Positions 13,890 through 42,917 of a stretch of DNA of 64,000 bases are shown here, in pieces. The notes beneath the pieces were generated by a model. That model was given only the letters and a program-made list of their open reading frames with translations. It did not search any database and was not told the origin of the DNA. Positions within the stretch are counted from its first letter, which is position 1. Every line of letters begins with the position of its first letter. Location: positions 67,390 through 131,389 of the forward strand of contig JBHJHD010000019.1 in the NCBI GenBank assembly GCA_050331115.1. Reading direction: 5' to 3'. Origin of the DNA: Elainellaceae cyanobacterium (GTDB lineage: Bacteria; Cyanobacteriota; Cyanobacteriia; CAKZMO01). The translations under genes were made by a program, and so were the position numbers.

Positions 13890-13916
13890 TTTGAGACTTG
13901 CACGTCGAGACTTGAC

Positions 13917-14933: not shown

Positions 14934-16286
14934 ATGCATATGAAAAATTCAGCTCAGCAGGCTCACCGAGTGGTTATTGTCGGCGGTGGTTTTGGCGGGC
15001 TTTACACGGCCAAGGCGCTGAAGAACGCGCCGGTAGATGTGACCCTGATCGATCGCCGCAACTTCCACCTGTTTCAGCCGCTGCTCTACCAAGTTGCCAC
15101 TGGCACCGTTTCCCCAGCCGACATTTCCTCTCCGCTGCGGGCCATCCTCAGCCACAACCGCAACACCAAGGTGCTCCTAGACGAAGTTGTCGACATCGAC
15201 CCCGAACAAAAGCAAGTGCTCTGTAAGCACGAGACCGTCCCCTATGACACCCTGATTATGGCCACCGGGGTGAGCCATCACTACTTCGGCAACGACCAGT
15301 GGCAAGAGCACGCCCCTGGCCTAAAGACTGTGGAAGATGCGCTGGAAATTCGCCGCCGCATTTTCATGGCTTTTGAGGCCGCCGAGAAGGAGTCTGACCC
15401 GGCGAAGCAGGCGGAATGGCTGACGTTTGTGATTGCGGGGGGTGGCCCCACCGGCGTGGAGCTGGCCGGGGCGATCGCTGAGCTGGCCTACAACATCCTG
15501 CCCCAGGACTTCCGCCGCATCGACACCCGCAAGTCGCGCGTGGTGCTGGTGGAAGGCATGGACCGCGTACTGCCCCCCTACGACCCATCGCTCTCCGAGC
15601 GGGCGGCCGAGTCGCTGCAGGGGCTAGGCGTTAGCGTGGTCACCGATTCCCTCGTTACCGACGTGCAGCCAGACCAGGTGACGCTGAAAAAGAAAGACGG
15701 CACCACCGAAACCATCGGCACGCGCACGGTGCTCTGGGCGGCTGGCGTCCGGGCCTCGAAGATGGGCAAGGTGCTCGCGTCTCGCACCGGCGCTGAGCTA
15801 GACCGGGCGGGCCGCGTGATGGTGGGACCGCGCTTGCACCTAGAAAACTACGACAGCGTCTTTGTAATTGGCGATCTGGCCCATGTGTCCCACCAGGGCG
15901 ATCGCCCGCTGCCGGGGGTCGCGCCCGTAGCCATGCAGGAGGCAAATTACGTGGCGAAGCTGGTTAAGCACCGCCTAGCCGGAAAGGCCGCCCCGGAGTT
16001 TCGCTATGTGGATCGCGGTAGCCTGGCGGTGATCGGCAAGAATGCCGCTGTGGTAGACCTAGGGTTCGTCAAGTTCTCGGGCTTCCTAGCCTGGCTGATC
16101 TGGATCTTTGCCCACATCTACTACCTGATTGAGTTTGACAATAAGCTGGTGGTAATGACGCAGTGGGCCTGGAGCTACTTTACGAGTAAGAGCGGCGCTC
16201 GCCTGATTACGGGACCTGAGGCGTTTAACCTGAGGCTGCCGACCGCGAATCAGACGGTGAAGGAGCGGGAGAAGACGCCTGCTTAG
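14934..16286 (+). CDS. type II NADH dehydrogenase (NDH-2)
   Basis: Two dinucleotide folds (VVIVGGGFGGLY; FVIAGGGPTGVELAG). NFHLFQPLLYQVATG and FVIGD motifs. C-terminal membrane-association helix. Confidence 0.9.
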   Translation: MHMKNSAQQAHRVVIVGGGFGGLYTAKALKNAPVDVTLIDRRNFHLFQPLLYQVATGTVSPADISSPLRAILSHNRNTKVLLDEVVDIDPEQKQVLCKHETVPYDTLIMATGVSHHYFGNDQWQEHAPGLKTVEDALEIRRRIFMAFEAAEKESDPAKQAEWLTFVIAGGGPTGVELAGAIAELAYNILPQDFRRIDTRKSRVVLVEGMDRVLPPYDPSLSERAAESLQGLGVSVVTDSLVTDVQPDQVTLKKKDGTTETIGTRTVLWAAGVRASKMGKVLASRTGAELDRAGRVMVGPRLHLENYDSVFVIGDLAHVSHQGDRPLPGVAPVAMQEANYVAKLVKHRLAGKAAPEFRYVDRGSLAVIGKNAAVVDLGFVKFSGFLAWLIWIFAHIYYLIEFDNKLVVMTQWAWSYFTSKSGARLITGPEAFNLRLPTANQTVKEREKTPA

Positions 16287-16400
16287 CGGCTTGAGCCCTG
16301 ATCGCTTTTTGATAGCTTTTGCGGTCTAAAGCGAACCCTACGCCAAACTCTAGCTGGTACAGGTTTAGCTTGTGTGGAAAATCGCGCTACATCCCGGCTT

Positions 16401-16455
16401 TACCCCTCTTAATCTCCCCTTGCAAGGGGGAGAAATTGTGGTTCTCCCCCTTGAG
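16401..16455. repeat. C-run/G-run hairpin element between convergent genes
   Basis: TCTCCCCTTGCAAGGGGGAGA imperfect hairpin (16413-16433), followed by a second CTCCCCCTT copy. Accounts for the spurious ORF 16319..16552. Confidence 0.4.
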
Positions 16456-16562
16456 CTTTGGCGTTAGCCTACCCGCAGGGCGTCGGGGAGCTAGAGGGAT
16501 CTTGCCAGGTCGCTATACAAATGCTCTAGCTGGCGCAGGATTCCTGGCTTAAAAGGGCTTGA

Positions 16563-18350
16563 CTATTCGCCCACAGCTACCCCTTCAGCGGGGTTTGCCG
16601 CGCTGCTAGATTCGCGAAAGCTGTTCAAGCCCCCCGTGGGCCATCCTTTAAGCCAGACCCCAAACCAGTTGTAGTGACGGGCCGCTGCGATCGCCACAAA
16701 CAGCAGGTCCAGGCCCACTACCCCAGCGATTACCAGCGCCGACCCCCCGGTGCCAAAGCCGTAGCTGTGCAGCCCCGTTCCCAGCACGAAGTTCACCCCA
16801 TACCAGGCCATCAGCACCGCGTTGAACGACACCACGCTAGCCACATTGATGCCAAAATCCCCCATCCAGCCCGTCAGCCGGCTGTGGAGCGGTGCCAGGT
16901 AGCACAGGAGAGCAATCAGCGCCCAGGTCTCCTTGGGGTCCCAGCCCCAAAAGCGCCCCCAAGAGAAGTGGGCCCAGATACCGCCCAGGATAATGCCCGC
17001 CGTCAGCAGCAGCACCCCCACCTGCAGCACCCGGTAGTTGAGCTGGGACAGGGTTTTGAACCGCTTTTTTTCGGTGGGGGCAAACAGGTCGTTGCCCAGG
17101 GCGACGTGGCCTAATCCCAGCGCCAGGGCAAAGCTGGCGTAGCTGAGGGCGATGGTGGGCACGTGAATGCTAAGCCAGAAGTTGTCCCGCAGTACGGGCA
17201 CCAGAGGCGAAATGCTGGGGTCGAGGACGGCGGGCAGACTATCCGCCAGAATCAGGCAGACCATCGCCAGGGGAGCCGCCGCTAGCAGGTAGTAGCGGCT
17301 GCGGGAGGTGAGTTCAAACAGGAGGGCGATCGCCGCGATGCCAAAGCCCACCCACACCACCGACTCATACATGTTGGTCACCGGGGGCCGTCCGGCAATC
17401 TGCATGCGCAGGAAAAAGCCATAGCTCTGCACCCCGATACCCGCCGTAAATAGGCCGATGGCGCTCCAGTAGAGGTCCCAGGGTTTGACCCAGAGGGCTA
17501 CCAGCATGACGATGAATGCTAAGCCGTATAGCCACCAGGCCTTGGCAAAGGGGTGGAAGTGGTTGAAATGGACCTCTCGCGCCAGCACCGCGTCGGCAGG
17601 ATAAATCTCAGGACTGAGCTGCTGTAGGCTCGCCTTGAGGCCGTCCGCCAGCGGCCCCACCATGGGTAAATGGGTCGACCCACCCCCATCAGACAAACCA
17701 GCTAGCAAGGCCTGCTGCATCAGGGCAAACTGGGCCATCACCGGGGCGATCGCCTCCGGTGAGTAGAGCTGCGGCGCGGTGCCCAGTCCGGCCCACTTTC
17801 CCTTACTCTCGCTGGGGTGAGGCACCACGGGCAGGCTTTTGTCTCCCACGGCCTGATACAGCAGGTTCAGCCGGCCTTCGATGGTCAGCGCCTCTCGCTC
17901 GTCGCGGCTGAGGTCTACGCCCTCGGCATCTTTCTGGTGCGCCTGCCCCACGATCGCCCCCAGCCCTCGGTTGGCCATTAGCTCTTGAAAGGTGAACTGC
18001 TTGCGTTCTAGGTCTAGGTTCGCTGCCTCTTTCAGGGGACGATAGCTGACCAGCACTACGGGCTCTTCGTTCCAGTTGCGGGTGTTGAACCACATGCCCA
18101 GGTAGGCGGTGAGGTAGTCTTCTCTCTCAACAGTTTCACCGCTGGTGTGGCGGTAGGCGGTGGAGCCGTGGATTTTGGCGATCGTTTCTTTGGCGACGGT
18201 GTCGAGGGGCTTTTTGCGCCCGTCAAGCTGCACGGCCAGGGTACGCAGGCTATCGAGTCCGTCGGGCTGGAACTGGCTGAGGGGCAGCAGTAGCAGGATA
18301 CAGCCTAAACACAGGCCGACCAGGAATTTTATGATATTGATGCCTTTCAT
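16563..18350 (-). CDS. CcsA/ResC-like cytochrome c biogenesis protein (System II haem lyase subunit) with long N-terminal extension
   Basis: WWD box WGRFWGWDPKETW (nt 16923-16961). Conserved His contexts (WLSIH, APLHS, GLHSY). Polytopic C-terminal ~330 aa. ~260-aa extra N-terminal domain behind a signal anchor. Confidence 0.85.
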   Translation of the reverse strand: MKGINIIKFLVGLCLGCILLLLPLSQFQPDGLDSLRTLAVQLDGRKKPLDTVAKETIAKIHGSTAYRHTSGETVEREDYLTAYLGMWFNTRNWNEEPVVLVSYRPLKEAANLDLERKQFTFQELMANRGLGAIVGQAHQKDAEGVDLSRDEREALTIEGRLNLLYQAVGDKSLPVVPHPSESKGKWAGLGTAPQLYSPEAIAPVMAQFALMQQALLAGLSDGGGSTHLPMVGPLADGLKASLQQLSPEIYPADAVLAREVHFNHFHPFAKAWWLYGLAFIVMLVALWVKPWDLYWSAIGLFTAGIGVQSYGFFLRMQIAGRPPVTNMYESVVWVGFGIAAIALLFELTSRSRYYLLAAAPLAMVCLILADSLPAVLDPSISPLVPVLRDNFWLSIHVPTIALSYASFALALGLGHVALGNDLFAPTEKKRFKTLSQLNYRVLQVGVLLLTAGIILGGIWAHFSWGRFWGWDPKETWALIALLCYLAPLHSRLTGWMGDFGINVASVVSFNAVLMAWYGVNFVLGTGLHSYGFGTGGSALVIAGVVGLDLLFVAIAAARHYNWFGVWLKGWPTGGLNSFRESSSAANPAEGVAVGE

Positions 18351-18406
18351 AATTATCCAAAATTGTTATTCACGGCGGGCGGTTTACGGTTTTTCAAAAT
18401 GGTTAT

Positions 18407-20248
18407 TCATGACGGGCGGGTTTGGGCGCCGACCAATTGCGGCGTCGGTTCGGCGATCGCATCTTCAACCGCATCCTCCGATGGGACTTCGGGATGGGGG
18501 GCGGGTTTGCCGCCGCGCGATCGCTTCATTACTGCCGGACCGTAAAACATGGTGCCAACCCCTACCACCACCATCAGCGATCCGATCCAGGTCAGGGCCG
18601 TCACCCACCAGGGCTCCCGCTTCAGCTGTAGGGTCGACTGCTTTAGGTCACCGGGGTTCCAAGACGCCTGGGCCAGTTTCCAGCCGCGAAACCAGGTGGG
18701 GTGGTTCATCCACACCGAGCGTTGGGTGGCGGTGTCGGTTTTGGGGTCAAACAGGGTGATTCTGCTAGTCCACATGGCCACCGACTCGCTGCCTTCGTTG
18801 CGCTCTACGATGAAGTCGTCGAGCTTCACATAGAAGGGAAGCTGCAGCAGCTTAGGCGCAAAAGCGGCGAAGTATTCGCCTTGGGGCGTATCGAGGGCCA
18901 TGGGCTCGCCCCAGGGAAGCCAAAGGGCCTTGCCAGCATTACCTTTGCCAGCATTACCTCTGCCGCCGGCTGCGATCGCCACCTGCAGCGCCGGAAAGCC
19001 TTCGTTAGCCCCGGCCCCAGCCGCAGCGGGGGTTATGGGCACGACCTGCCGCCTCACCTGGGCGTGGTCCAGGCGATTGGCTAGGGAGATTTGGAAGTCG
19101 GCCCAGCCGGGGGCAATAACGTCACCAGGACGTAGCTCGCCCGAGCTAAAGCCCTTCGATGAGAGGGCTGCGTAGAACAGCTGACTATCGGGAGCCGCTA
19201 CGACGCGGAAATAGTCTGACGCCGTGGTGTCGGGCGCGGCATAGGTCGCCTCTAAATCAATCGCATCCCCAGAGCGCACGGGAGGTAGTCCTGGCTTTGC
19301 GAACACAAACCAGCGCTCTTGAGTCTCGTCTTGAGATACATTCACCTGCACCGCCGGGTTACGAAACGCGTTCGAAGCCGATGCTGGCTTACCCGACGTC
19401 AGGCGAAAGTCGGGCCACACCGCAACAATCTCGGCGGTGATGCCGCCCGGAAGCGACACAGACTGGCTTAATTTTTTCTCGATGTCGATGGTGCGATCGC
19501 CTAGCTGCAGCGTGCCATAGGTGGACTGGGACGAAGGCGGGCTGAGAAACTGCTTCAGCTCAACCTCGTCTGCCGCCTGCCGCAGCTCTAGGCGCGCCGG
19601 CCCAATGTCCATCTGGCCATAGCCCAGGGGAGCCAGCGCCAGCCAGCGCTCTAGGGTCTGCCCCATGCGATCGCTGCGGAGCCGCAGCTGCACCGCTAGA
19701 TTCTCGGCGGCTGGACCCTTCGCGCTGTCCCCCTCGACGAAGCGCACCGTCTTAGTGGCGCGATCGCTGTAGCCCAGAAGTGAGAGTCCGGCGAACCGTG
19801 AGGGATGCACCGAGCCATCGGGCTTGACGAAAATATCGGTCTGGCGACGCGTCTGGTCTGGCGACGCCACCTCCAGCAGGTCGCCCTCCACGCGAATCTG
19901 ATTGCCGGGGCCGCTGTCGGTGCGTACTAGCAGCATGCCTTCGGTGCTGAGATGAATGACGGCGGCGGACCCCGCAATAATAATGATCAAACCCCAGTGG
20001 GTGATAGCGAAGCCCACCTTGCGGGGGCCGCGCCAGGGATAGCGGCTGAGGGTGGAAACGCCTAGGTTAACCGCCAGTAAAAACATTAGCCCGCCAAACC
20101 AGGCGCTCTTGTAAATTTCTCTTTGAACCGTGGCGGAGCCGACGTTCGACTCATAGAAAGTCGCGCCAATTAGAATGATGGCGATCGCCACAATAAGCGG
20201 AACTGCTAGGCGAATTGAGCCTAAAAAACGAATAGCCTTGGGGGGCAT
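18407..20248 (-). CDS. ResB/CcsB-like cytochrome c biogenesis protein
   Basis: ResB-like architecture: N-terminal TM pair with conserved His (FAITHWGLIIIIAG), large soluble domain, and a C-terminal FYVKLDDFIVE...W.NHP...KLAQASW...REPWW + TM segment. Confidence 0.8.
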   Translation of the reverse strand: MPPKAIRFLGSIRLAVPLIVAIAIILIGATFYESNVGSATVQREIYKSAWFGGLMFLLAVNLGVSTLSRYPWRGPRKVGFAITHWGLIIIIAGSAAVIHLSTEGMLLVRTDSGPGNQIRVEGDLLEVASPDQTRRQTDIFVKPDGSVHPSRFAGLSLLGYSDRATKTVRFVEGDSAKGPAAENLAVQLRLRSDRMGQTLERWLALAPLGYGQMDIGPARLELRQAADEVELKQFLSPPSSQSTYGTLQLGDRTIDIEKKLSQSVSLPGGITAEIVAVWPDFRLTSGKPASASNAFRNPAVQVNVSQDETQERWFVFAKPGLPPVRSGDAIDLEATYAAPDTTASDYFRVVAAPDSQLFYAALSSKGFSSGELRPGDVIAPGWADFQISLANRLDHAQVRRQVVPITPAAAGAGANEGFPALQVAIAAGGRGNAGKGNAGKALWLPWGEPMALDTPQGEYFAAFAPKLLQLPFYVKLDDFIVERNEGSESVAMWTSRITLFDPKTDTATQRSVWMNHPTWFRGWKLAQASWNPGDLKQSTLQLKREPWWVTALTWIGSLMVVVGVGTMFYGPAVMKRSRGGKPAPHPEVPSEDAVEDAIAEPTPQLVGAQTRPS

Positions 20249-20698
20249 AGCGATCTCAATAGATTGAGGGTCATTTACTCACTTTTAGAGCTTTACTTGG
20301 AAACATTTGCAGCCTTTGATACAAAATCGAAATTTAGGCATTCAGAATTCGCATCTAAAAGTACACAAATTGCATGACTTCTTTGAGCTTCTGGGTGCTC
20401 AGATGGGTGCTCAGAAGGCGCATTCAATATTTACATCAAAGCTATGCAGTATTTGAGAATAAAAGTTGAAAAGCGTATTTGATTTTACAAAAGTACAGGA
20501 GCTATCTATCTATGGTCAGATTTGAGAAGCGCACCTTTACTATGACTTTTAAAGAGCTTAAGGATTTCCCCAACAGCTTCTGTAAGCGATTCTAGAGGCT
20601 ATTTTTGTCTTGCCTTAATTGCTGTGGGATGCGTTAGGTGTCGAATTTGACAGTTGAGGGATGGCCGTTTTTCTAAAGTCTATTCAGGCTAATCCCAC

Positions 20699-20740
20699 GT
20701 CAGCCAAGGTGTTAATAAAGTCAGCCAAGGCATTAATAAA
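20699..20740. repeat. 21-nt tandem repeat x2 in the divergent ccsB/globin spacer
   Basis: GTCAGCCAAGGTGTTAATAAA / GTCAGCCAAGGCATTAATAAA, about 100 nt upstream of the globin start. A 12-nt x2 repeat TGGGTGCTCAGA is at 20392-20415. Confidence 0.85.
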
Positions 20741-20839
20741 TTTGATTATGGGTTGCGATAGGCCATGTTAAAAGGCCGCAGGCTTATGCCTTTATGCATT
20801 GATATCTGTTGAATCTAAACGTTACTTAGGAAGGCAAAA

Positions 20840-21874
20840 ATGGTTTCAAATATCGATCAAAAAGCGGCGCTAAAGGTTGAGCTTTTAGAGCAAAGCTTTG
20901 AAAAAGTGAAGCCCCACGCCAACGACTTTGCAGCGAGCTTCTACGAGAACCTGTTTGTAGATTATCCGGCAGCTGAGCCGCTGTTTGCCGAAACGGATGT
21001 GGCAGCTCAGAGTAAAAAGCTGCTGGCATCTCTTGTGTTTGTGGTTGAGAACTTGCGTAACCCCGGTGCGCTGACGGGTGCCCTAAAGGGTTTAGGGGCT
21101 CGCCACGTGGAATACGGTGCGCTGCCCGCCCACTATCCCCTAGTCGGGAATACGCTACTCAAGACCTTCGATCAGTACTTAGGCGCTGACTGGACCCCTG
21201 AGACCCAACAGGCCTGGACTGAAGCCTACGGCGTGATCACCGAGACCATGCTTGAAGGGGCTGATTACGCCGAAGAAGACGTGCAGCTTGCGCCGCCTCC
21301 CGCCGAGGTAGACGAAGCCACCGGGCTAAAGGTTGGCCTTTTGGAGCAGAGCTTCGAGAAGGTGAAGCCCCATGCAAATGAGTTTGCGATCAGCTTCTAC
21401 GAGAATTTGTTTGCGGACTACCCGGCCGCCAAGCCGCTGTTCGCGCAAACGGACGTGACGGCACAGAGCAAAAAGCTGCTGGCGTCCCTCGTGTTTGTGG
21501 TTGAGAACTTACGTAAGCCGGGTGAGCTAACCGGCGCGCTAAAAGGGCTGGGCGCTCGCCACGTTCAGTATGGTGCCTTGCCTGAGCACTACCCTCTAGT
21601 GGGCAGCAGCTTGCTAAAGACTTTTGATCAGTACCTCAAAGGCGACTGGACCCCCGAAGTCGAGCAAGCCTGGATTGACGCCTACGGCCTGATCACTGAG
21701 GTGATGCTAGAAGGGGCCGACTACTCTCCAGAAGCGGTGCAGCTTAGCCCCGTGGCCGCACCCAGCTCTACTCCTGCTGCCCCTACTGCCGAAGCTGGCC
21801 TCAAGGCGGGCCCGCTACTGGGTGGGCTAATTGGCGGTGGCGCGGTGCTGCTTGTCATCCTGCTGCTGCTTTAG
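20840..21874 (+). CDS. tandem two-domain globin with C-terminal transmembrane tail
   Basis: Two ~140-aa 3-on-3 globin-like units (SFYENLF... QSKKLL ... LGARHV.YG). By my manual alignment, 116/140 residues are identical between units. Ends in a GPLLGGLIGGGAVLLVILLLL hydrophobic tail. No signal peptide. Confidence 0.8.
   Translation: MVSNIDQKAALKVELLEQSFEKVKPHANDFAASFYENLFVDYPAAEPLFAETDVAAQSKKLLASLVFVVENLRNPGALTGALKGLGARHVEYGALPAHYPLVGNTLLKTFDQYLGADWTPETQQAWTEAYGVITETMLEGADYAEEDVQLAPPPAEVDEATGLKVGLLEQSFEKVKPHANEFAISFYENLFADYPAAKPLFAQTDVTAQSKKLLASLVFVVENLRKPGELTGALKGLGARHVQYGALPEHYPLVGSSLLKTFDQYLKGDWTPEVEQAWIDAYGLITEVMLEGADYSPEAVQLSPVAAPSSTPAAPTAEAGLKAGPLLGGLIGGGAVLLVILLLL
20870..21745 (+). repeat. 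intragenic tandem duplication (2 x 456-nt period) encoding the two globin domains
   Basis: Unit 1 is 20870-21289 and unit 2 is 21326-21745. The units are clearly alignable at nucleotide level, with many synonymous differences. Confidence 0.9.
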
Positions 21875-21912
21875 CCTGCTGCTTAACTCCATTGGGAGGA
21901 ATGTTCTAACTT

Positions 21913-22593
21913 ATGGCATCTCGAGGTCGATCCAACAGGCAACCTAGGCAACAGCGATCGCAAGCTGGCGGCAGAGGCCGTTCGCTCATCAGCTTAAGAA
22001 CGGCGATCGCTGTTGCCTGCATCGTTCTGGTGGGCTGGTTCTCGGCAGCCTTTGCCCTAGATAATAAGCAGGCTTTCTTACCGGGGGAGACCTCTGTAGG
22101 TCACTACCTCGTAGAAGCCTCCTGTAGCTCCTGTCACGAGGGATTCAAGCCCGTCAGCAACGACACCTGCATGCGCTGCCACGAAGCCGAGCTAGCCCAA
22201 GATGCCCACGGCCCTAAGAAGTTCATGGACCCCCGCTGGGCGGGCGAGCTAGCCGAGATTGAGGCGCTGACCTGCACCACCTGCCATAACGAGCATGTGC
22301 ATATGTTTGGCCGGGGGGTGCACCTGCAGCCCGACCTCTGTATGACCTGTCACGAGGGGATCATTAGCGGCGAGCTGAAGAGCCACGACGGCTTCACTCC
22401 AGACGGCTGCTGGACCGCTGGCTGCCACAACTACCACGACCACCGCACGATTTCCACCGGGTTTCTGAGGAAAAACCTCGACCAGCCCCCCATGCTGCCG
22501 GTGCAGGTTGTCCCAGAGCGCGTTGTAACAACGGAGCTAGAGACACCTCCAGCAGCGGATTTAGGCGAGGAGTTTCTGGGAGGTGAGACATGA
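21913..22593 (+). CDS. membrane-anchored multihaem cytochrome c (4 CXXCH + 1 CX4CH)
   Basis: CSSCH(71-75), CMRCH(86-90), CTTCH(121-125), CMTCH(143-147), CWTAGCH(166-172). Arg-rich N-terminus followed by one TM helix. Confidence 0.85.
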   Translation: MASRGRSNRQPRQQRSQAGGRGRSLISLRTAIAVACIVLVGWFSAAFALDNKQAFLPGETSVGHYLVEASCSSCHEGFKPVSNDTCMRCHEAELAQDAHGPKKFMDPRWAGELAEIEALTCTTCHNEHVHMFGRGVHLQPDLCMTCHEGIISGELKSHDGFTPDGCWTAGCHNYHDHRTISTGFLRKNLDQPPMLPVQVVPERVVTTELETPPAADLGEEFLGGET

Positions 22594-23432
22594 CGGTAAA
22601 TAAGCGGCTTGTCGTGTCCTGTCTATTGGCTCTGGCGCTGCTGCTGGGCTGGGCTACCCCGGCCTGGGGCGATAGGACCGGAGACGCGGTGGACCAGGCC
22701 GCATTGGATGAAACCACTCAGCTTTGGAAAACCAGCGCCCACGCCCTCAACGACATCAACTGCTCTAGCTGCCACCAAGACGAAGAGACCAAGGCGTTTG
22801 TGGCCGACCCCACTTACGAGAGCTGCCAATCCTGCCACGAGCAGTCGGTAGACACCTTTCTGCTGGGTAAGCACGGCATTCGCTTACTCGAAGACGAGTC
22901 TCCCCTGATGCCCGCCATGGCGCGACTGCCCATGAAGCAGGCTGCCCACGACCTGCAGATGACCTGCAGCACCTGCCACGATGCCCACTCGGTGAACACC
23001 GTCCAGGCCGCCGTCGACTCCTGCCTCACCTGCCACAACGACACCCACTCCCTCAACTACGAAAACTCCCAGCACGCCCAGCTGTTCGCCGCCGACCTGG
23101 TAGAGCTGCCTCGGCCCTCCGGCCCAGGGCTGCCCCGGCCCTCCGGCAGCGCGGTGAGCTGCGCCACCTGCCACCTGCCGCGCCACGAGGTGGAGACGGG
23201 CGGCGAGACGGTGACCCTGGTCAACCACAACAACACCTACACCCTGCTGCCCCGCGATCGCATGGTGGGAGAGGTGTGCATGAACTGCCACGGCGTGGAG
23301 TACAGCTACAACAGTATTTTTGACGATGACCTGGTGGAGGCCAACTTCGATGCGCCGCCCACCCTATCCCTTGAGACCTTCGACCTAGTTCGCGCCCTCG
23401 AAGAGCGGCGAGCCGGTCAAGAAGGCGAATAG
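22590..23432 (+). CDS. secreted hexahaem cytochrome c
   Basis: Signal peptide (LALALLLGWATPAWG/D). CSSCH(58), CQSCH(79), CSTCH(126), CLTCH(145), CATCH(191), CMNCH(230). ATG overlaps the previous stop (ATGA). Confidence 0.85.
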   Translation: MTVNKRLVVSCLLALALLLGWATPAWGDRTGDAVDQAALDETTQLWKTSAHALNDINCSSCHQDEETKAFVADPTYESCQSCHEQSVDTFLLGKHGIRLLEDESPLMPAMARLPMKQAAHDLQMTCSTCHDAHSVNTVQAAVDSCLTCHNDTHSLNYENSQHAQLFAADLVELPRPSGPGLPRPSGSAVSCATCHLPRHEVETGGETVTLVNHNNTYTLLPRDRMVGEVCMNCHGVEYSYNSIFDDDLVEANFDAPPTLSLETFDLVRALEERRAGQEGE

Positions 23433-23561
23433 GCTCCGTCAAATCCAGCGTTCGCTCAGACGAACTTTTCTGCTCACAAGGCTTCCTCGCTTTATATTCC
23501 GGAAGCCTCGCAAACGCTCTCACAACGACCTAACGCACGTATTGAACCCAAGGACACAACC

Positions 23562-24218
23562 ATGACAATGCTAGAGAACTGGATCAGCGCTATCCGCACC
23601 CGAACGGTGGCGTTCATTGCTATCATTTTGGCCGTCGCCGTGACGGCGATCTCTTGCAGCGGTGGCGGTACCGCCACCACCGAGGCATCCGCTGGCGTCG
23701 CCCCTGAGCTGGTGGCCGACTATATTCACACCGTGCTGGCGGCTGACCGCACCGCCTACACCAAGCACGTGGTCAACCGCGTCAAAACTCTAGAGGGTAA
23801 GGCTAAAGAGGCGGGCGTGCTTGAGGTGGAATCCACTGAGGGCTGGCAGCAGACGGACGGTATTCCCCTGCCGGCGCAGATGTTCCGCCTAGGCTCTGAG
23901 ATCGCCAACGACTCGGGCTACTTCACCTACAACCTGATCTCGCCCTGGTATATCAATGACAGCCACGCCCCCAAAGGCGAGTTTGAGGAGACTGCCGTCC
24001 AAGCCATGATCGATACGGGCGAACCCGTCAAGGAATATCAGGAGATCAGCGGTCAAACCTACTTCTCCGCGATGTATCCCGACAACGCCGTGGCAGAAGC
24101 CTGCGTCAGCTGCCACAATACTCACCCTGTTCACCTGGAGCGCTACCCCGATAAGCAGTTCGTGATGGACGAAGTGATGGGCGGCATTGTGATCAACATT
24201 CCGCTAGAGGGCGCTTGA
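23562..24218 (+). CDS. DUF3365/Tll0287-like c-type haem lipoprotein
   Basis: Lipoprotein-like signal (VAVTAISC/SGGG). A single CVSCH (aa 181-185, nt 24102-24116) near the C-terminus, in the context YPDNAVAEACVSCHNTHP that I recall as typical of the Tll0287 PAS-like haem c family. Confidence 0.7.
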   Translation: MTMLENWISAIRTRTVAFIAIILAVAVTAISCSGGGTATTEASAGVAPELVADYIHTVLAADRTAYTKHVVNRVKTLEGKAKEAGVLEVESTEGWQQTDGIPLPAQMFRLGSEIANDSGYFTYNLISPWYINDSHAPKGEFEETAVQAMIDTGEPVKEYQEISGQTYFSAMYPDNAVAEACVSCHNTHPVHLERYPDKQFVMDEVMGGIVINIPLEGA

Positions 24219-24240
24219 TAAGGGCTCATCCCTAGGTCCT

Positions 24241-24264
24241 GCCGAGGGGCGATCGCCCCTCGGC
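24241..24264. repeat. perfect 24-nt palindrome centred on a HIP1 site
   Basis: GCCGAGGGGCGATCGCCCCTCGGC lies 23 nt downstream of the DUF3365 gene stop. No T-tract follows. Confidence 0.8.
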
Positions 24265-24310
24265 TGCTCAACTGCATCGGTAGACATTGGTCTAACCCCC
24301 TTTAATCATC

Positions 24311-25027
24311 ATGAGCACCCCTCATCCCCACTCTCCACCGAATCTCCAGACATCGGCACTCACCACACACACCGATGAAGCGCCCCCTCTAGTAGAGCAG
24401 CCGCTCACCGCAAAAGCGCCCCGTCCTCGGGGCATTCAGCCCAGCCTCAAAGTGCTGATCGGCCTCACCTTACTGACGGCGCTGCTGCTGCTGCCCTTCG
24501 CCTTTAGCGCCATCTACCTCGACCGGCTGCGGGAAGAATCCGTAGAACTGCACCGGTTTATGCGCGGGGAACTATACAAGCAGGGGACCGGCTATGCAGC
24601 CTTGGGCTTTGTGCTGCTAGAGGTCATGCTCAGCGTCCGCAAGCGCAGCCGCAGCTGGATTGGCCGCATCAAGCTGCCGGGGTCGATGCAGCTGTGGCGC
24701 AGCGTTCATGTTTTCCTAGGGGTGGGGCTGGTGGCCATGGTGCTGGTCCACACACTGGGGTCCAACGGCCTCAACTTTAACGCGGCGCTGCTGTGGGTGT
24801 TCTTTGCCACAACGCTAACGGCGCTGGTGGGCGTAGTAGCCGAAACCGGCATTCTAGAGTCCACCCGCAGCTACTTTGGCAAGCTGCCCTGGAGCCCGGT
24901 CCCGCTCACCAAAGGCCCCTTAATTCGAGGGCTGCGATCGCTCTGGCTGGTGAGCCATATCTTCTTTGTCTGCGTGTTCGCCGTGATGCTGGCGTTTCAC
25001 GTTGCCTTGGCGTATTACTACCAGTAA
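24311..25027 (+). CDS. 5-TM membrane protein, predicted dihaem b-type cytochrome (ferric-reductase-domain-like)
   Basis: Five hydrophobic helices. His133-X13-His147 in predicted TM3 and His216-X13-His230 in predicted TM5. Function is inferred from the His spacing only. Confidence 0.6.
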   Translation: MSTPHPHSPPNLQTSALTTHTDEAPPLVEQPLTAKAPRPRGIQPSLKVLIGLTLLTALLLLPFAFSAIYLDRLREESVELHRFMRGELYKQGTGYAALGFVLLEVMLSVRKRSRSWIGRIKLPGSMQLWRSVHVFLGVGLVAMVLVHTLGSNGLNFNAALLWVFFATTLTALVGVVAETGILESTRSYFGKLPWSPVPLTKGPLIRGLRSLWLVSHIFFVCVFAVMLAFHVALAYYYQ

Positions 25028-25054
25028 TCGTTTCTCAAGGATGTGTATCCACCT

Positions 25055-25083
25055 GTAAGGACACAGCATGCCGTGTCCCTACC
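25055..25083. repeat. small palindromic element (GGACAC...GTGTCCCTACC type), copy 2
   Basis: GTAAGGACACAGCATGCCGTGTCCCTACC lies 28 nt after the stop of the 5-TM gene. Stem GGACAC/GTGTCC with an 8-nt loop. Confidence 0.5.
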
Positions 25084-25230
25084 AATGTCGGTCATGCCCA
25101 CATTGCGCCACAAGGGAGAGCTGACGCTTTACGAATGGCTCGACCGATACGGCGAGATGAGCCCCGCTTTCCGTAAGCTGATCGAATCCATAACCCACTT
25201 CAAATATGGCGTCCGTTAGGGAGAACTTCA

Positions 25231-25704
25231 ATGGCTACAGAGCGATTTGATTTGGAGAAAAACCGAGCCAGCTGGATTGTAGCTGCGCTCGTGGGGCTGT
25301 TTGCGATCGCCGCTGTTGTTGTGACGCGCCCAGACGGGTCATCGCCGAGTCTTTCAGCAGTGTCGGGGCTAATGAGCTTGAAGGCTACGGCCCAAGCGGC
25401 AATGCCCTACGACATCGCCATGGCCGATCCAAAACCCACCCTAGTCGAGTTCTATGCTGACTGGTGCACCACCTGTCAGGCCCTAGCGCCAACCCTGCAG
25501 GACATCCACGAGCAGGCAGGCGATCAGATCAATTTCGTCATGCTGGATATTGACGATCCCCAGTGGCGACAGCAGGTCAATCAGTTTCAGGTCAGCGGTG
25601 TTCCTCACCTAGCGCTGCTAGATTCAAGCCACGTCGTTGCAGACAGCTTTGTAGGGCGCGTTCCCCGACAAGTCTTAGTGGCTCGCATTGCCGACCTGCT
25701 TTAG
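25231..25704 (+). CDS. membrane-anchored thioredoxin-like protein (TxlA/CcsX/ResA-like)
   Basis: N-terminal TM anchor, then a thioredoxin fold with a WCTTC active site (aa 78-82; cysteines C79/C82) and a downstream GVP cis-Pro motif. Confidence 0.8.
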   Translation: MATERFDLEKNRASWIVAALVGLFAIAAVVVTRPDGSSPSLSAVSGLMSLKATAQAAMPYDIAMADPKPTLVEFYADWCTTCQALAPTLQDIHEQAGDQINFVMLDIDDPQWRQQVNQFQVSGVPHLALLDSSHVVADSFVGRVPRQVLVARIADLL

Positions 25705-25732
25705 CGCGCCTTACTTTAGGAGGCTAACCCCC

Positions 25733-25963
25733 ATGGCAATACTGCATCGATTTCTTCTATTGCTAGAGTTTCTAGATCGGCTCATCGACATCGCTGAGGC
25801 TTCAGCCGATTCGCTCACCGCGCCAGTCGCCACTGCCGCTGCGGCCTGTCTGCTGAGCTATCAGGCGCTGCTGCTTGCGGGCTGTGATGTCCTGTCCTCA
25901 GCGGTCCTCTCCAGCGCGATCGCCCTGGCGTTAAACTGTGGATTCAACCACCCCAATACTTAA
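25733..25963 (+). CDS. small hypothetical protein (76 aa)
   Basis: ATG 25733 is preceded by AGGAGG at 25718-25723. The stop overlaps the ChaN-like start (TAATG). No recognisable family. Confidence 0.4.
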   Translation: MAILHRFLLLLEFLDRLIDIAEASADSLTAPVATAAAACLLSYQALLLAGCDVLSSAVLSSAIALALNCGFNHPNT

Positions 25964-26883
25964 TGCGCCCAATCCAACGCGCCCAACTTAACGTGCCTAT
26001 GACAGTTCCCGTGTCCCGCTGGCGTCTCGGCTGTAGTGCCTTAAGCATTGCCCTGCTGCTCACGGTTCCAGCGGCCTGCTCAATCGCCGATGAGCTGCCT
26101 ACGGCTAGCGTCCCGCTAACCCTGTCTAGCGAAGCGGCGGATCTTGCCCCCCTACTCGTGGACGTGGTTTACCTTGGAGAACGCCACGACAGCGCCGAAG
26201 ACCACGCTGCCCAGCTGGAGATCATCCAGGCGCTCTACGCCGAGGACCCCAACATGGCGATCGCCCTGGAGATGTTTCAGCGCCCGTTTCAGCCTGTGCT
26301 CGATCGCTACCTGGCGGGGGAAATCTCGGAGGCGGCGCTGGTGGCCCAAAGCGAATACGAGCAGCGCTGGGGCTTCCCCTGGGAATATTACGCCCCTATC
26401 CTGCAGTTTGCCCAGGCCCACCAGCTTCCCGTGCTGGCCCTCAACGCCCCCAGCGAGGTGGTGCGACAGGTGGCGCGGGAAGGCCTTGGGAGTCTGCAGG
26501 AGCAAGACTTTCGCTACATTCCGCCGCTGGATCAGCTCGATACCAGCGGCGCTGAGTATCGAGAATTCGTCGGGGCGGCATTTGGCGGCCACGGCGACCA
26601 CGGCAGCTTCGATTTCGAAAATTTCTTTGCCGCCCAGGTCGTATGGGACGAAACGATGGCGGCCACCGTTGCGTCGTTCAAGCGGGCCTCACCGGAGACG
26701 CGGGTGGTGGTGCTGGCAGGTAGCGGCCACGTCATGTACGGCTACGGCATCCCCAGCCGAGTGGCCCGGCGTTTAGAAGGACAGGTGGGCGAGCCCCTGC
26801 AGCAAACGACGGTGCTCATCAATCCGCCGGAGGCGCTAGCGGCGTCGGAGGATGCCGCAGATGTCTTTTGGCGTAGCGAGTAG
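25963..26883 (+). CDS. ChaN-like haem-binding lipoprotein (Cofac_haem_bdg/Tiki-type fold)
   Basis: Signal with lipobox-like TVPAAC. VVYLGERHDSAEDHAAQLEII, IALEMFQRPFQPVLDRY and LPVLALNAP resemble the ChaN/PF04187 family. Confidence 0.7.
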   Translation: MRPIQRAQLNVPMTVPVSRWRLGCSALSIALLLTVPAACSIADELPTASVPLTLSSEAADLAPLLVDVVYLGERHDSAEDHAAQLEIIQALYAEDPNMAIALEMFQRPFQPVLDRYLAGEISEAALVAQSEYEQRWGFPWEYYAPILQFAQAHQLPVLALNAPSEVVRQVAREGLGSLQEQDFRYIPPLDQLDTSGAEYREFVGAAFGGHGDHGSFDFENFFAAQVVWDETMAATVASFKRASPETRVVVLAGSGHVMYGYGIPSRVARRLEGQVGEPLQQTTVLINPPEALAASEDAADVFWRSE

Positions 26884-27365: not shown

Positions 27366-28649
27366 GTGATAAAAGGGGGTTTTTCCCCAACTTTCGTAAC
27401 TACGGTAACTTCTGTGACTGCAAAATCAGAGATTAGTGGCTCCTCAGACCACAGCGATGCCCATCACATTGCCCGCAGCGCTCTAGATGGTTCAATCGAT
27501 CGCCAGCTTAGCGCCTACGACTACCATCTCCCTGAGGCCTGCATTGCCCAGCATCCCGCCTCTCCCCGCGATCGCTCTCGGCTGCTGGTGGTTGACGGCC
27601 CGACAGGCTGCCGTCACCAAACCTTTTGCGATCTGCCGCAGTGGCTGCGGGCGGGCGACCTGCTGGTGCTCAACAATACCCGGGTAATTCCGGCGCGGCT
27701 TATAGGCCGCAAGGCCAGCGGCCTTGCCGTAGAGGTGTTTTTACTGGAGGAGCGAGGGCCTGACTGCTGGCACGCCCTCGTTAAGCCGGGTAAGCGGCTA
27801 AAGCCCGGTGTTGAAGTCTATTTTGATGGACTCAATGCTCCTCTCAATACACCGACTGATGCACGGGCTACTGGTTCACCGGTTAGCAGCTCACCAGCTG
27901 TCGTTGGCGAAGTCCTAGCTGTAGAGCCAGCCACCGGAGGGCGATTGATTAAGTTTAGGGTTCCCGATAAGCGGCCGTTTCGCTCACTGCTGCCCCAGCT
28001 GGGGCAGGTGCCGCTCCCCCCTTATATCACCAGCACTGACGTTGGGGCAGAGCGGTATCAGACGGTCTACGGCGATCGCCCTGGTGCGGTGGCCGCGCCC
28101 ACCGCGGGCCTGCACTTTACCCCAGAGCTGCTCCAGACCTTAGAGGCCATGGGTGTGGGCGTGGCGACGCTGACGCTGCACGTGGGCATCGGAACCTTTC
28201 GCCCGGTGGAGCGTGAAGACATTGCGGCCCACAAAATGCACGGTGAGTGGATTGAGGTAACGCCGGCGGTGGTCGCTGCGGTTCAGCAGACGCGGGCGCG
28301 GGGTGGGCGGGTGATCGCGGTGGGAACCACCAGCGTTCGCGCCCTAGAGGGAGCCGCGCAGGGCGAAACGCTGCAGCCCTACTGCGGCCAAACCAGCATC
28401 TTCATCTATCCGGGCTACCGCTGGCGGGTCATCGACGGCCTGATCACCAATTTCCACCTGCCCAAATCCAGCCTGATGATGATGGTGAGCGCCCTAATTG
28501 GCCGTCAGCGCCTGCTGGATCTCTATCAGCTGGCGATCGCCCAGGCCTACCGGTTTTACTCTTTTGGCGACGCGATGCTAATTCTGCCCGAAGCCCAGCT
28601 GCCCGAAGCCCAGCTGCCTGAAGCCCAGCTGCCCAACGCTCAGCTCTAG
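27366..28649 (+). CDS. queA: S-adenosylmethionine:tRNA ribosyltransferase-isomerase
   Basis: YDYHLPEACIAQHP, LLVLNNTRVIPARL, PLPPYI, AAPTAGLHFT, VGTTSVRALE and FYSFGDAML motifs. Start is uncertain (GTG 27366 or 27414). The C-terminus carries a 15-nt x4 repeat (PEAQL). Confidence 0.92.
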   Translation: MIKGGFSPTFVTTVTSVTAKSEISGSSDHSDAHHIARSALDGSIDRQLSAYDYHLPEACIAQHPASPRDRSRLLVVDGPTGCRHQTFCDLPQWLRAGDLLVLNNTRVIPARLIGRKASGLAVEVFLLEERGPDCWHALVKPGKRLKPGVEVYFDGLNAPLNTPTDARATGSPVSSSPAVVGEVLAVEPATGGRLIKFRVPDKRPFRSLLPQLGQVPLPPYITSTDVGAERYQTVYGDRPGAVAAPTAGLHFTPELLQTLEAMGVGVATLTLHVGIGTFRPVEREDIAAHKMHGEWIEVTPAVVAAVQQTRARGGRVIAVGTTSVRALEGAAQGETLQPYCGQTSIFIYPGYRWRVIDGLITNFHLPKSSLMMMVSALIGRQRLLDLYQLAIAQAYRFYSFGDAMLILPEAQLPEAQLPEAQLPNAQL

Positions 28650-29623: not shown

Positions 29624-29740
29624 ATCTATCGCTGCATGTATCTTTCTTAAGACATGTATAAATCATTCTACGTATAGGGTACATTATTTTATACAGGCAG
29701 CAATAGACTTAGCTGAGCTCGCATCGCAGGCCGCGCCACA

Positions 29741-42443: not shown

Positions 42444-42917
42444 CTAGGACACCTTAATCAGCACGCGATCGCCGTCAATCTTAGCTTCGTAGGTCGGCAG
42501 CGGCTCCGACGCCGGCCCCTCAGTTACGCTGCCGTCAGGGGCAAACTTAGAGCCGTGGCAGGGGCAGGCGAACGCCTCGCCATCCCAGTCGACGGTGCAG
42601 CCCTGGTGGGTACAGAGGGTGTTCACCGCCATCACGCCCCCGGATGAACCCTGAACGACGGCCACCTGTTCGCCCTGGAAATTTTGGCTGGAAATGCTGC
42701 CCTCCTCTAGCTCGGAGACCGTACCGATTGCGGAGAAGCCTGCCGCGTCTGGGGTAGACTCTAGCTCTGCAGAAGCCGTGCCGCCCGCTGCAGATGGAGT
42801 ATCAGACGATGCGGTGCCAGACGATGCGGTATCAGACTTGCAGGCGGCGATCGCGACGGGCAGCGAGCTTGCCAAGAGACCAAAGCCGATCCAGTTTACA
42901 AATTCACGTCGTTTCAT
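42444..42917 (-). CDS. small Rieske [2Fe-2S] protein with Tat/lipoprotein-type signal (PetC3-like)
   Basis: RREF twin-Arg-like N-terminus with an AIAAC lipobox. Rieske boxes CTHQGC and CPCHGS. Confidence 0.85.
   Translation of the reverse strand: MKRREFVNWIGFGLLASSLPVAIAACKSDTASSGTASSDTPSAAGGTASAELESTPDAAGFSAIGTVSELEEGSISSQNFQGEQVAVVQGSSGGVMAVNTLCTHQGCTVDWDGEAFACPCHGSKFAPDGSVTEGPASEPLPTYEAKIDGDRVLIKVS

Follow-up and report, generated by a model that had tools for sequence, protein, structure and literature searches.

A globin-linked haem gene cluster of cyanobacteria as a candidate transmembrane electron wire in nitrogen assimilation

Background

Ten adjacent genes in a stretch of 64,000 nucleotides of an Elainellaceae cyanobacterium (contig JBHJHD010000019.1, positions 67,390 to 131,389; the whole stretch is referred to as the window) encode a tandem globin, a pentahaem and a hexahaem cytochrome c (here named cyt5 and cyt6), a Tll0287-like (sCache_haem) lipoprotein, a dihaem b protein with five transmembrane helices (5TM), a thioredoxin, a small hydrophobic protein, a ChaN-like lipoprotein and relatives of the cytochrome c maturation proteins ResB and CcsA. 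The locus raises the question of what a globin could have to do with such a chain of haems, and it bears on the long-standing question of the role of multihaem cytochromes and extra CcsBA sets in cyanobacteria. A first-pass annotation of the window had described the genes as a resident haem island that matched no characterised complex, had read them as a transmembrane electron wire, and had offered three roles for it: electron exchange with a globin that reacts with nitric oxide (NO) or O2 and lacks its own reductase, reductive acquisition of iron or haem, and extracellular electron transfer. We lean, on balance, towards the interpretation that the cluster specifies one membrane redox complex along with its own maturation machinery, and that this complex is a globin-linked transmembrane wire for the handling of reactive nitrogen in nitrate/nitrite assimilation, under the control of NtcA.

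In the arrangement that we propose, one to five globin domains of the FHb/Vgb type would be held on the cytoplasmic face of the membrane by a C-terminal anchor, and the two HX13H helices of the 5TM protein would hold a transmembrane stack of two b haems. On the periplasmic side, cyt5 (anchored by a transmembrane helix) and cyt6 would form a wire of 11 haems, all apparently bis-His ligated, which would end at the lipid-anchored sCache_haem protein and probably also at a Rieske lipoprotein of the PetC3 type. The two b haems would carry electrons through the membrane and so connect the periplasmic chain with the partner in the cytoplasm. ResB, CcsA and the thioredoxin (active site WCTTC) would attach the 12 c haems, with ChaN and the protein of 75 aa as likely accessories. 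The role in the handling of NO, nitrite and hydroxylamine from nitrate/nitrite assimilation is suggested by the genomic context.

Conservation of the cluster in cyanobacteria

For cyt6, 952 homologues were detectable, the top matches all being cyanobacterial, and a scan of one genome per species placed relatives in 184 species-level genomes. The loci of the best 80 of these (all cyanobacterial; the remaining 104 were not inspected) were annotated with phmmer, and presence was counted only where the flanks sufficed. The order globin-cyt5-cyt6-Tll0287-like-5TM-thioredoxin was essentially invariant across these best 80 genomes, and the presence of the individual genes is given in Table 1. The ResB and CcsA genes were found divergent upstream, co-directional upstream or downstream of this core and were linked to it in all three arrangements, which argues for selection on the linkage. 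Chance co-localisation of the cluster genes can be rejected with synteny conserved in about 80 species-level genomes.

The carriers among the best 80 genomes come from many cyanobacterial lineages and are for the most part filamentous organisms that are benthic or form mats; they include Leptolyngbya, Halomicronema, Nodosilinea, Geitlerinema, Moorena, Symploca, Coleofasciculus, Caldora, Xenococcaceae, Limnothrix, Prochlorothrix, Phormidesmis, Adonisia and Leptothoe, and the cluster was also found, outside the species scan, in Rubidibacter. The open literature, searched for the individual components and for combinations of them (subscription-only papers lay outside these searches), yielded no description of the cyanobacterial cluster or of the related module in other phyla that is described below, in agreement with the earlier view that it is not a characterised complex.

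In the window itself, the seven junctions from the globin gene through chaN measure 38, -4, 129, 92, 203, 31 and -1 nt and are operon-like, with overlaps of 4 nt between cyt5 and cyt6 and of 1 nt between the small open reading frame (ORF) and chaN. HIP1 sites number 102 in the 64 kb, against about 1.8 expected, and lie inside eight of the ten cluster genes (the exceptions being the globin gene and the Tll0287-like gene); the G+C content (GC) of the cluster genes is 0.57-0.64, the same as that of the window. The HIP1 sites inside the genes and the window-like GC point to a resident island of cyanobacterial origin rather than a recent import, as had been proposed.

The first-pass annotation held for most of its structural claims. 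All ten ORFs were recovered with their coordinates and strands, the counts of haem motifs, the HX13H pairs, the WWD box and the HIP1 sites were reproduced by motif counting, and profile searches bore out eight assignments (CcsA, ResB, the two-domain globin, two multihaem cytochromes of the c3/c7 type, the Tll0287-like protein, the thioredoxin and ChaN). The intergenic gap described as AT-rich and of about 590 nt has nearly that length (Table 1), and the small protein, reported with 76 aa, has 75 aa if it starts at its ATG (or 91 aa if at an upstream TTG). The picture of a ten-gene haem island needs amendment in two respects: ChaN is only an accessory, and an eleventh member, a Rieske protein, had been overlooked. 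The Rieske gene is adjacent to ccsA in 50 cyanobacterial loci and in the window is found 15.5 kb from the cluster, beside an unrelated ATP-binding cassette (ABC) permease.

Table 1. Features of the haem gene cluster in the window; presence is given as number of cyanobacterial loci with the gene over number of assessable loci
Feature	Position	Strand	Match or other support	Presence/assessable
CcsA-like System II haem lyase paralogue, 595 aa	16563..18350	-	Pfam Cytochrom_C_asm 6.9e-33	43/46
ResB/Ccs1-like System II component, 613 aa, diverged from the canonical family	18407..20248	-	Pfam ResB 1.5e-14	45/46
Divergent promoter region between resB and globin operon, 591 nt, AT-rich, GC ~0.44	20249..20839	.		
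Second CRP/NtcA-family-like dyad TGCA-N8-TACA, near resB start	20308..20323	+	TG[CT]A-N8-TACA enrichment	
Predicted NtcA-type class II promoter, GTATTTGATTTTAC + 22 nt + TATGGT	20475..20516	+	Faces globin operon, 365 nt before ATG	
Tandem two-domain globin, 344 aa	20840..21874	+	Pfam Globin 3.7e-40, two domains	70/70
cyt5, membrane-anchored pentahaem cytochrome c, 226 aa	21913..22593	+	Cytochrom_c3_2 / C7 / CIII matches	70/70
cyt6, secreted hexahaem cytochrome c, 280 aa	22590..23432	+	Cytochrom_c3_2 / C7 / CIII matches	
Tll0287-like / sCache_haem lipoprotein, 218 aa	23562..24218	+	Pfam Tll0287-like 7.6e-19	73/73
5TM protein, predicted dihaem b, 238 aa	24311..25027	+	Two HX13H pairs; Ni_hydr_CYTB 3.9e-4, sub-gathering	73/73
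Membrane-anchored extracytoplasmic thioredoxin, WCTTC	25231..25704	+	Pfam Thioredoxin 1.1e-18	72/73
Small hydrophobic protein, 75 aa from ATG	25736..25963	+	No Pfam or NCBIfam match	44/65
ChaN-like predicted haem-binding lipoprotein, accessory	25963..26883	+	Pfam Cofac_haem_bdg 7.9e-71	20/65 (31%)
PetC3-like Rieske [2Fe-2S] lipoprotein, displaced eleventh member	42444..42917	-	57% identity to Rieske beside ccsA in locus L013	42/46

The multihaem cytochromes form a split undecahaem chain

The haem motifs of cyt5, four CXXCH and one CWTAGCH (CX4CH), were invariant in 81 sequences and are accompanied by at least five conserved distal His residues, and cyt6 has six CXXCH motifs with exactly six invariant non-motif (distal) His residues. 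In an exhaustive profile search most of the remote relatives were proteins of 400-480 aa in which cyt5 and cyt6 are fused to a single undecahaem cytochrome; this undecahaem family has about 1,900 members, and its labelled carriers are three metagenome-assembled genomes, of Rhodospirillaceae, Acidobacteriota and Dadabacteria. The cyt5 of the window is 37% identical to residues 15-169, and its cyt6 39% identical to residues 187-428, of one such undecahaem (P0253), and as judged from these alignments the pair is a split version of the undecahaem of other phyla. Across undecahaems that are 39-69% identical, the 5+6 distal His residues are invariant for the 11 haems, and H169 is additionally conserved in at least 90%. 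With a conserved distal His for every one of the 11 haems there is no obvious catalytic haem, which suggests a pure wire, and no CXXCK motif was found in the cluster cytochromes.

Two catalytic identities were considered for the cytochromes. The possibility that cyt6 is a reductase of the hydroxylamine oxidoreductase (HAO), octahaem nitrite reductase (ONR) or NrfA type is not supported, as its six haems are matched by six invariant distal His residues, leaving no open or Lys-ligated site. The protein is partly similar to the HAO-like protein 6h5l of Kuenenia (E = 8.8e-8 over about 155 residues with five haem motifs) and, more weakly, to TvNiR and NrfA. As a quinol dehydrogenase of the NapC/NirT/NrfH type, cyt5 would have the membrane anchor and five haems, but it matched Cytochrom_c3_2 only and not Cytochrom_NNT. 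Further profile matches of the cytochromes, all weak, were to DmsE, QrcA, HmcA and ActA, with an MtrC domain below the cut-off. A sequence search of the PDB with cyt5 gave nothing meaningful, and a Foldseek search of the PDB with the AlphaFold2 model of cyt6 (predicted local distance difference test, pLDDT, 75.6) gave no neighbour (best E = 1.2); models of apo-multihaem proteins are evidently not searchable by Foldseek. In one relative, P0270 (831 aa, on a 202-kb JGI contig), a transporter domain of the major facilitator superfamily type precedes the undecahaem at its N-terminus, which may hint at a transported substrate.

A related module outside the cyanobacteria is linked to nitrate assimilation

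The relatives in other phyla were studied in gene contexts and 80 metagenome loci, counts being given per assessable loci. The non-cyanobacterial operon consists of a flavoprotein fused to the dihaem b domain, the undecahaem, a Tll0287-like protein (57 of 63 loci) and a soluble globin of 137 aa with neither signal peptide nor tail (41 of 59 loci); in four loci the b domain stands alone. The N-terminal 470 residues of the flavoprotein correspond to the FAD/NAD(P)H and BFD [2Fe-2S] half of NirB (TIGR02374, 8e-106, model positions 1-468 of 794). Full-length comparison of the window's proteins with their non-cyanobacterial counterparts gave 24-39% identity for all five shared components. The module is ancient and widespread beyond the cyanobacteria.

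Clustering of the ORFs that flank this module yielded genes for a NasT-like ANTAR response regulator, a nitrate-binding protein (NMT1_2), a permease of the NrtB type, an ABC ATPase and a NasC/NasA nitrate reductase. Of the 36 loci whose flanks reach at least 5 kb, 21 had one or more of the NasT, NrtA, NrtB and NasC genes. In the two fully annotated loci L108 and L164 the order is NasT, the module and NrtABC, and no sirohaem nitrite reductase is encoded within 8 kb. A functional precedent for such a gene neighbourhood is the narK-bjgb-flp-nasC unit of Bradyrhizobium, in which the globin Bjgb and the flavoprotein Flp detoxify NO that originates from nitrate assimilation, under the control of NasS-NasT (PMC4724949). 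Loci of the Dadabacteria type, where the module lacks the flavoprotein, also encode a secreted protein of about 450 aa that is dCache-like and has a hydrophobic, sorting-like tail at its C-terminus (L090, 5886-7253; L091, 10118-11470). Among the cyanobacterial loci, that of Nodosilinea sp. P-1105 (L037) is the only one with nitrate transporter genes nearby, NrtA- and NrtB-like genes being located a few kb downstream (15842-20292).

These observations could also be read as evidence for a periplasmic multihaem reductase of nitrite, NO or hydroxylamine, through which electrons run outward as in an assimilatory analogue of NrfHA or epsilon-Hao. Its catalytic site would be the sCache_haem protein or the CX4CH haem, its power would come from NAD(P)H through the NirB-like part or from ferredoxin through the globin, and the globin would only mop up NO. 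It would explain why the flavoprotein corresponds to the NirB reductase half, a haem wire taking the place of the sirohaem half, why the module occupies the usual place of nirBD between nasT and nrtABC (in L108 and L164 neither nirB nor nirA lies within 8 kb), and why cyt6 resembles HAO-like and octahaem nitrite reductases; the sCache_haem protein of the cluster, without a Cys ligand, may moreover have a labile Met. However, all 11 haems of the wire have a distal His, with no open site and no CXXCK, no catalytic sCache_haem protein is known, nitrite of cytoplasmic origin would need export, and cyanobacteria normally have the ferredoxin-dependent NirA. We consider a periplasmic reductase rather unlikely.

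Under the interpretation that we favour, a globin-linked wire, electrons in the other phyla would flow from NAD(P)H to the periplasm through the NirB-half flavoprotein, with the soluble globin co-encoded. For nitrate/nitrite reduction cyanobacteria generally depend on ferredoxin in place of the NAD(P)H flavoproteins of other bacteria, and in the cyanobacteria the flavoprotein would have been lost and the globin tethered to the membrane instead.

The dihaem b protein and its cytoplasmic fusion partners

The 5TM protein has two His pairs, H133/H147 on TM3 and H216/H230 on TM5, each of the form HX13H, and all four residues were invariant in 148 sequences (73 cyanobacterial and 75 non-cyanobacterial), in line with the two b haems that had been predicted for it. 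The AlphaFold2 model consists of five long helices. The basic residues, read from the sequence by the positive-inside rule, are clustered in the N-terminus, the TM2-3 loop and the TM4-5 loop, which places the N-terminus inside and the C-terminus outside; with this topology one His pair would be near each membrane face.

The topology is borne out by two independent gene fusions. One of them, known from three independent contigs of cyanobacteria, joins a globin to the 5TM protein at its N-terminus, with the thioredoxin gene next in each case (for example P0214; L086, 207-1367). In the other, present in 42 of the 49 assessable non-cyanobacterial loci, an NAD(P)H flavoprotein with a [2Fe-2S] domain is fused N-terminally to the same dihaem b domain. 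Both fusion partners are necessarily cytoplasmic, so that the b domain would exchange electrons with a cytoplasmic redox protein. We regard these two Rosetta-stone fusions, together with the tail anchor of the globin, as the strongest support for the predicted transmembrane wire. As the fusion with the flavoprotein shows, a redox partner in the cytoplasm can be attached to the dihaem b domain, and this leads to a concrete hypothesis of how globins without a reductase could be kept reduced. The topology put forward in the first-pass annotation (tail-anchored globins in the cytoplasm, a dihaem b protein in the membrane, and 5+6+1 haems in the periplasm) thus finds support in the six-gene order, the globin tail and the two independent fusions.

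Although the topology of the 5TM protein is like that of the ferric reductase domain (FRD) and NOX proteins, membership of that family is not demonstrable. A bc1/b6f-type complex of the Rieske protein with a cytochrome b was rejected, as the 5TM protein gave no match to the Cytochrome_B profile and its His-bearing helices are opposite in orientation. A sequence search of the PDB with the 5TM protein gave nothing meaningful.

The globin is a predicted tail-anchored member of the M family

The globin of the window has no signal peptide and a single hydrophobic, Gly-rich segment at its extreme C-terminus, and is predicted from these features to be cytoplasmic and tail-anchored. Its two domains are 79% identical to each other (Pfam Globin, 137.5 bits), and the tail is conserved in nearly all cyanobacterial orthologues, so that the description as a tandem two-globin protein with a C-terminal transmembrane tail stands. 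The residues Tyr-B10, Gln-E7, His-F8 and Tyr-G5 were kept in 136-145 of 146 cyanobacterial globin domains, as expected for the M family (FHb/Vgb/Cgb-like), and with Leu-E11 included the set was found in 44 of 44 non-cyanobacterial and in 93-99% of the cyanobacterial domains. The number of globin domains in the first gene of the operon varies from one (Moorena) through three (L069) up to five (Symploca sp. SIO1C2). Copy-number variants, all with the same C-terminal tail, were noted in L072 (6777-9140), L069 (7738-9258) and L082-L084, and about ten clusters (L016, L021-L024, L028, L030, L039, L044 and L007) have an extra tail-less globin between the 5TM gene and the thioredoxin gene. The globin is not a flavohaemoglobin (Hmp), since the Hmp model NF009805 was matched with 135.9 against a cut-off of 432, aligned with the globin part only, and no reductase domain is present. 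Nor is its tail a sorting signal of the PEP-CTERM or GlyGly-CTERM type, lacking a PEP motif and a terminal basic cluster.

The closest matches in the PDB, Methylacidiphilum HGbI/IV and Vitreoscilla Hb, handle O2, and this raises the possibility of oxygen management, in which tethered globins of very high affinity would scavenge or deliver O2 at the membrane (e.g. for the respiratory protection of nitrogenase in micro-oxic mats) and the wire would supply electrons for O2 reduction. Control by NtcA would suit a link with diazotrophy, and the mostly benthic or mat-forming habit of the carriers and the dosage of one to five globin domains are also in line with it. On the other hand, the non-cyanobacterial module is tied to nitrate assimilation and not to nif, clustering of the neighbours showed no nif genes that recur beside the cyanobacterial cluster, and globins are not known as terminal oxidases. 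A role in oxygen management appears improbable to us.

The sCache_haem and Rieske lipoproteins

The Tll0287-like protein matched PF11845 with 69 bits (cut-off 24.1), and the position of its single CXXCH, which 78 of 79 homologues from cyanobacteria and 69 of 69 from elsewhere have kept, fits the sCache_haem family. Its only Cys residues are C32 of the lipobox and the CXXCH pair; the axial Cys ligand of Tll0287 is absent, and the conserved candidate ligands are M107, M206 and H188. A sequence search of the PDB gave nothing meaningful for this protein. Signalling-type sCache_haem domains bind NO, and a stand-alone sCache_haem protein of P. putida, which is Cys/His-ligated, showed behaviour termed 'redox-related' (bioRxiv 10.64898/2026.02.01.703092).

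The Rieske protein has a twin-arginine translocation (Tat) signal and a lipobox, and its best match in the PDB is 5cxm (PetC3; E = 2.7e-21). PetC3 was described as a periplasmic Rieske protein anchored in the plasma membrane, with a midpoint potential of +135 mV (PMC10172866, PMC12341915), and a PetC3 mutant shows a disorder of nitrogen metabolism (PMC10172866).

The globin and sCache_haem families both include true sensors (globin-coupled sensors and NO-binding Cache_haem receptors), and the cluster might accordingly act as a sensor of gas or redox state on either side of the membrane, with the haem chain only setting the redox poise and the output going to an unlinked regulator. Yet no kinase, methyl-accepting chemotaxis protein or GGDEF output domain is fused or conserved in the cluster, 12 c haems with dedicated biogenesis genes would be a heavy investment for a sensor, and the NAD(P)H flavoprotein fusion points to electron throughput, which makes a sensor very improbable.

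A predicted NtcA site in front of the globin operon

The orthologous divergent regions of 53 loci were compared with 300 composition-matched controls. GTA-N8-TAC was present in 23 of the 53 regions (3.4 ± 1.8 in the controls), and the complete arrangement GTA-N8-TAC-N20-24-TAN3T in 16 of the 53 (0.6 expected); none of the 300 controls reached either value. When the pattern was relaxed to G[TC]A, 16 of the 17 sites listed, including that of the window, were oriented to the globin operon. Only four GTA-N8-TAC matches occur in the whole 64 kb, the site in front of the globin operon among them. TG[CT]A-N8-TACA was found in 27 of the 53 regions (1.7 expected), and this second dyad, TGCA-N8-TACA in the window, may be a site for NtcA or another regulator of the CRP family. 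The k-mer GATACAAAA, which came up in a first-pass enrichment, was resolved into the NtcA/CRP-family dyad. No enrichment of Fur-like, CRP or FNR consensus motifs was observed in these divergent promoter regions.

Maturation genes and accessories

The CcsA-like protein matched Cytochrom_C_asm with 114.5 bits (cut-off 29.9) and contains a WWD box, WGRFWGWDPKETW, with a His before and after it. An N-terminal extension of about 300 aa and a TIGR03144 score of 164.1, below the equivalog cut-off of 187.6, indicate a divergent paralogue. In the ResB-like protein only residues 466-540 (75 residues) aligned with the Pfam model (54.2 bits, cut-off 24.6), and no NCBIfam match was found. The thioredoxin (Pfam, 67.5 bits) has a WCTTC motif that was invariant in 74 sequences and an N-terminal hydrophobic anchor at residues 13-31, and we infer that it is an apocytochrome reductase of the ResA/CcsX/HCF164 type. 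Most simply, ResB, CcsA and the thioredoxin would be a dedicated System II set for the 12 c haems, the invariant CX4CH included, and would stand outside the wire itself; the first-pass annotation had recognised the ccsB/ccsA-like genes and the WWD box of the latter, and had missed that they would be a maturation set rather than part of the wire. Also in one non-cyanobacterial locus (L171) resB-ccsA is located directly upstream of the module. Among the homologues of the small ORF one Cys is near-invariant, and ChaN (PF04187, 238.9 bits, cut-off 27.7) is predicted to bind haem.

ChaN is central to a further explanation, in which a ferric reductase like NOX or FRE would pass electrons to the periplasmic haem chain for iron acquisition or extracellular electron transfer, with ChaN handling haem or iron. 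In its favour are the FRD-like topology and HX13H pairs of the 5TM protein, a UniRef homologue of which is named 'ferric oxidoreductase domain-containing protein', the occurrence of ChaN in the window and other loci, and the weak profile matches of the MtrC/DmsE type. Nevertheless, ChaN is absent from 69% of the clusters, no recurring outer-membrane beta-barrel or porin-cytochrome gene was seen, and the conserved links with globin, nitrate and NtcA would be left unexplained. We judge this explanation, like oxygen management, to be improbable. A conduit of the Mtr/Omc type was likewise not supported, as the conserved neighbours hold neither a recurrent beta-barrel nor a further cytochrome gene.

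Function of the complex

Of the three roles put forward in the first-pass annotation, that of an NO/O2-reactive globin without reductase is best supported, by the pocket residues, the Bjgb-Flp precedent and the nitrogen links. Reductive iron or haem acquisition is weakened by the restricted presence of ChaN and by the promoter regions, which are not enriched in Fur-like boxes, and extracellular electron transfer found no support because no outer-membrane component recurs among the neighbours. For the globin-linked wire two directions may be envisaged: the wire could keep the globin haem reduced for NO dioxygenation or for nitrite/hydroxylamine chemistry, or a globin reduced by ferredoxin could send electrons outward through the wire.

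Several points weigh against a globin-linked wire in nitrate/nitrite assimilation. No nas genes flank the cyanobacterial clusters, with L037 as the sole exception, and the perfect NtcA architecture occurs in only about one third of the promoter regions. The 5TM protein reached the threshold of none of the curated families (PF01292, prokaryotic cytochrome b561, 20.7 against 30.1; no PF01794 match; a faint precomputed match to DUF4405), and its model, of mediocre quality (pLDDT 69.5), had no neighbour in the PDB by Foldseek (best E = 1.6). A Rieske protein of the PetC3 type, with its potential of about +135 mV, is unlikely to donate electrons to bis-His haems of low potential, and it seems roundabout to route electrons to a cytoplasmic globin via the periplasm when ferredoxin is abundant. 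As the site of the complex, both the plasma membrane and the thylakoid membrane may be considered. The stand-alone sCache_haem protein tested so far, Cys/His-ligated unlike that of the cluster, bound neither NO nor O2 strongly (bioRxiv 10.64898/2026.02.01.703092).

A more far-reaching and tentative suggestion is that the module is an unrecognised class of nitrogen-cycle enzyme, built on a NOX-like dihaem b protein, in which the globin and the periplasmic chain would act together on NO, nitrite or hydroxylamine, turning them over inside and outside the membrane, and which in the nitrate assimilation of some bacteria would replace sirohaem nitrite reductase. If so, this would be the first function for PetC3 and for stand-alone sCache_haem proteins. 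In any case, the cluster brings together in one testable complex a number of orphans, namely sCache_haem/Tll0287, PetC3, single-domain globins without reductase and a new dihaem b family, and the links with nas genes and NtcA suggest an unrecognised route by which NO, nitrite or hydroxylamine is handled in nitrate assimilation and that would be relevant to the fluxes of nitrogen oxides in mats, sponges and sediments.

Other genes in the window

A gene for a protein like the type 2 NADH dehydrogenase NDH-2 (Pyr_redox_2) is found at 14934-16286 (+), convergent with ccsA. It was considered as the missing flavoprotein and rejected, as it is located beside the cluster in no other locus and no flavoprotein-like gene is found in the cyanobacterial loci. 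Upstream of it, an apparently unrelated trio specifies a transporter of the energy-coupling factor type (BioY-like S component, EcfT-like protein and ATPase; 12661-14603, -). Further along, a QueA-like ORF ends in EAQLP repeats (28590-28649), and short tandem repeats at about 29680-29870 give rise to repeat ORFs of the LCVRP- and LRRR-type on both strands.

Comparison with known systems

FRD carriers (NOX, FRE, STEAP and MsrQ/YedZ) share with the 5TM protein an N-terminus on the inside and His pairs on TM3 and TM5 that stack two b haems, many of them have a fused cytoplasmic NAD(P)H/flavin module, and they feed an extracytoplasmic partner (as MsrQ feeds MsrP), as the 5TM protein would. Unlike these proteins, the 5TM protein has five transmembrane helices instead of six and a 12-haem c chain as partner, it has no Pfam Ferric_reduct or structural match, and the reductase domain of the module is N-terminal and of the NirB/Pyr_redox_2+BFD type, not of the FNR type.

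The partial sequence similarity of cyt6 to HAO, octahaem nitrite reductase and NrfA goes together with a nitrogen-related context that is common to both sides, whereas cyt6 is much smaller, has another haem count and shows no five-coordinate or Lys-ligated haem. The combination of a membrane module with a periplasmic bis-His multihaem chain is found likewise in Cbc/CbcL of Geobacter, Hmc/Tmc/Qrc of Desulfovibrio, NrfH/NapC/CymA and ActA of alternative complex III, and Hmc and Tmc also connect their periplasmic cytochromes to a redox subunit in the cytoplasm, as proposed for the cluster. Nevertheless, no homology to the Cbc, Hmc, NrfH or ActA systems exceeds the family thresholds, no quinone-site family was identified, a globin or a NirB-like flavoprotein takes the part of the cytoplasmic partner, and the chain ends in sCache_haem.

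For the maturation genes a parallel is provided by Wolinella, with its dedicated System II lyases NrfI, CcsA1 and CcsA2. In the cluster, too, the genes for an extra ResB and CcsA pair and for an anchored thioredoxin lie next to those of the cytochromes that they presumably mature, of which one has the non-standard CX4CH motif. In contrast to the Wolinella lyases, ResB and CcsA are separate genes, are unusually long and score below the NCBIfam equivalog cut-offs, and the specificity for CX4CH is putative.

The Bjgb-Flp-NasC unit has in common with the non-cyanobacterial module a single-domain globin of the FHb type, an NAD(P)H flavoprotein and nitrate-assimilation neighbours. In the module, however, the flavoprotein is fused to a transmembrane dihaem b domain and followed by the undecahaem and sCache_haem, and the cyanobacterial cluster differs further by the lack of a flavoprotein, the tandem tail-anchored globin, the apparent control by NtcA and the lack of adjacent nas genes. 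The Tll0287/sCache_haem and PetC3 families have been without an assigned function and, previously, without a tie to the cluster. To our knowledge there is no characterised precedent for a globin that is hard-wired to a transmembrane haem chain of the respiratory style. The components belong to known families, the general design of a cytoplasmic redox protein, a b cytochrome in the membrane and a multihaem c chain in the periplasm is known from complexes of the Hmc, Tmc and Cbc type and from NOX and MsrQ, and what is new is the globin as the cytoplasmic partner and the context of nitrogen assimilation.

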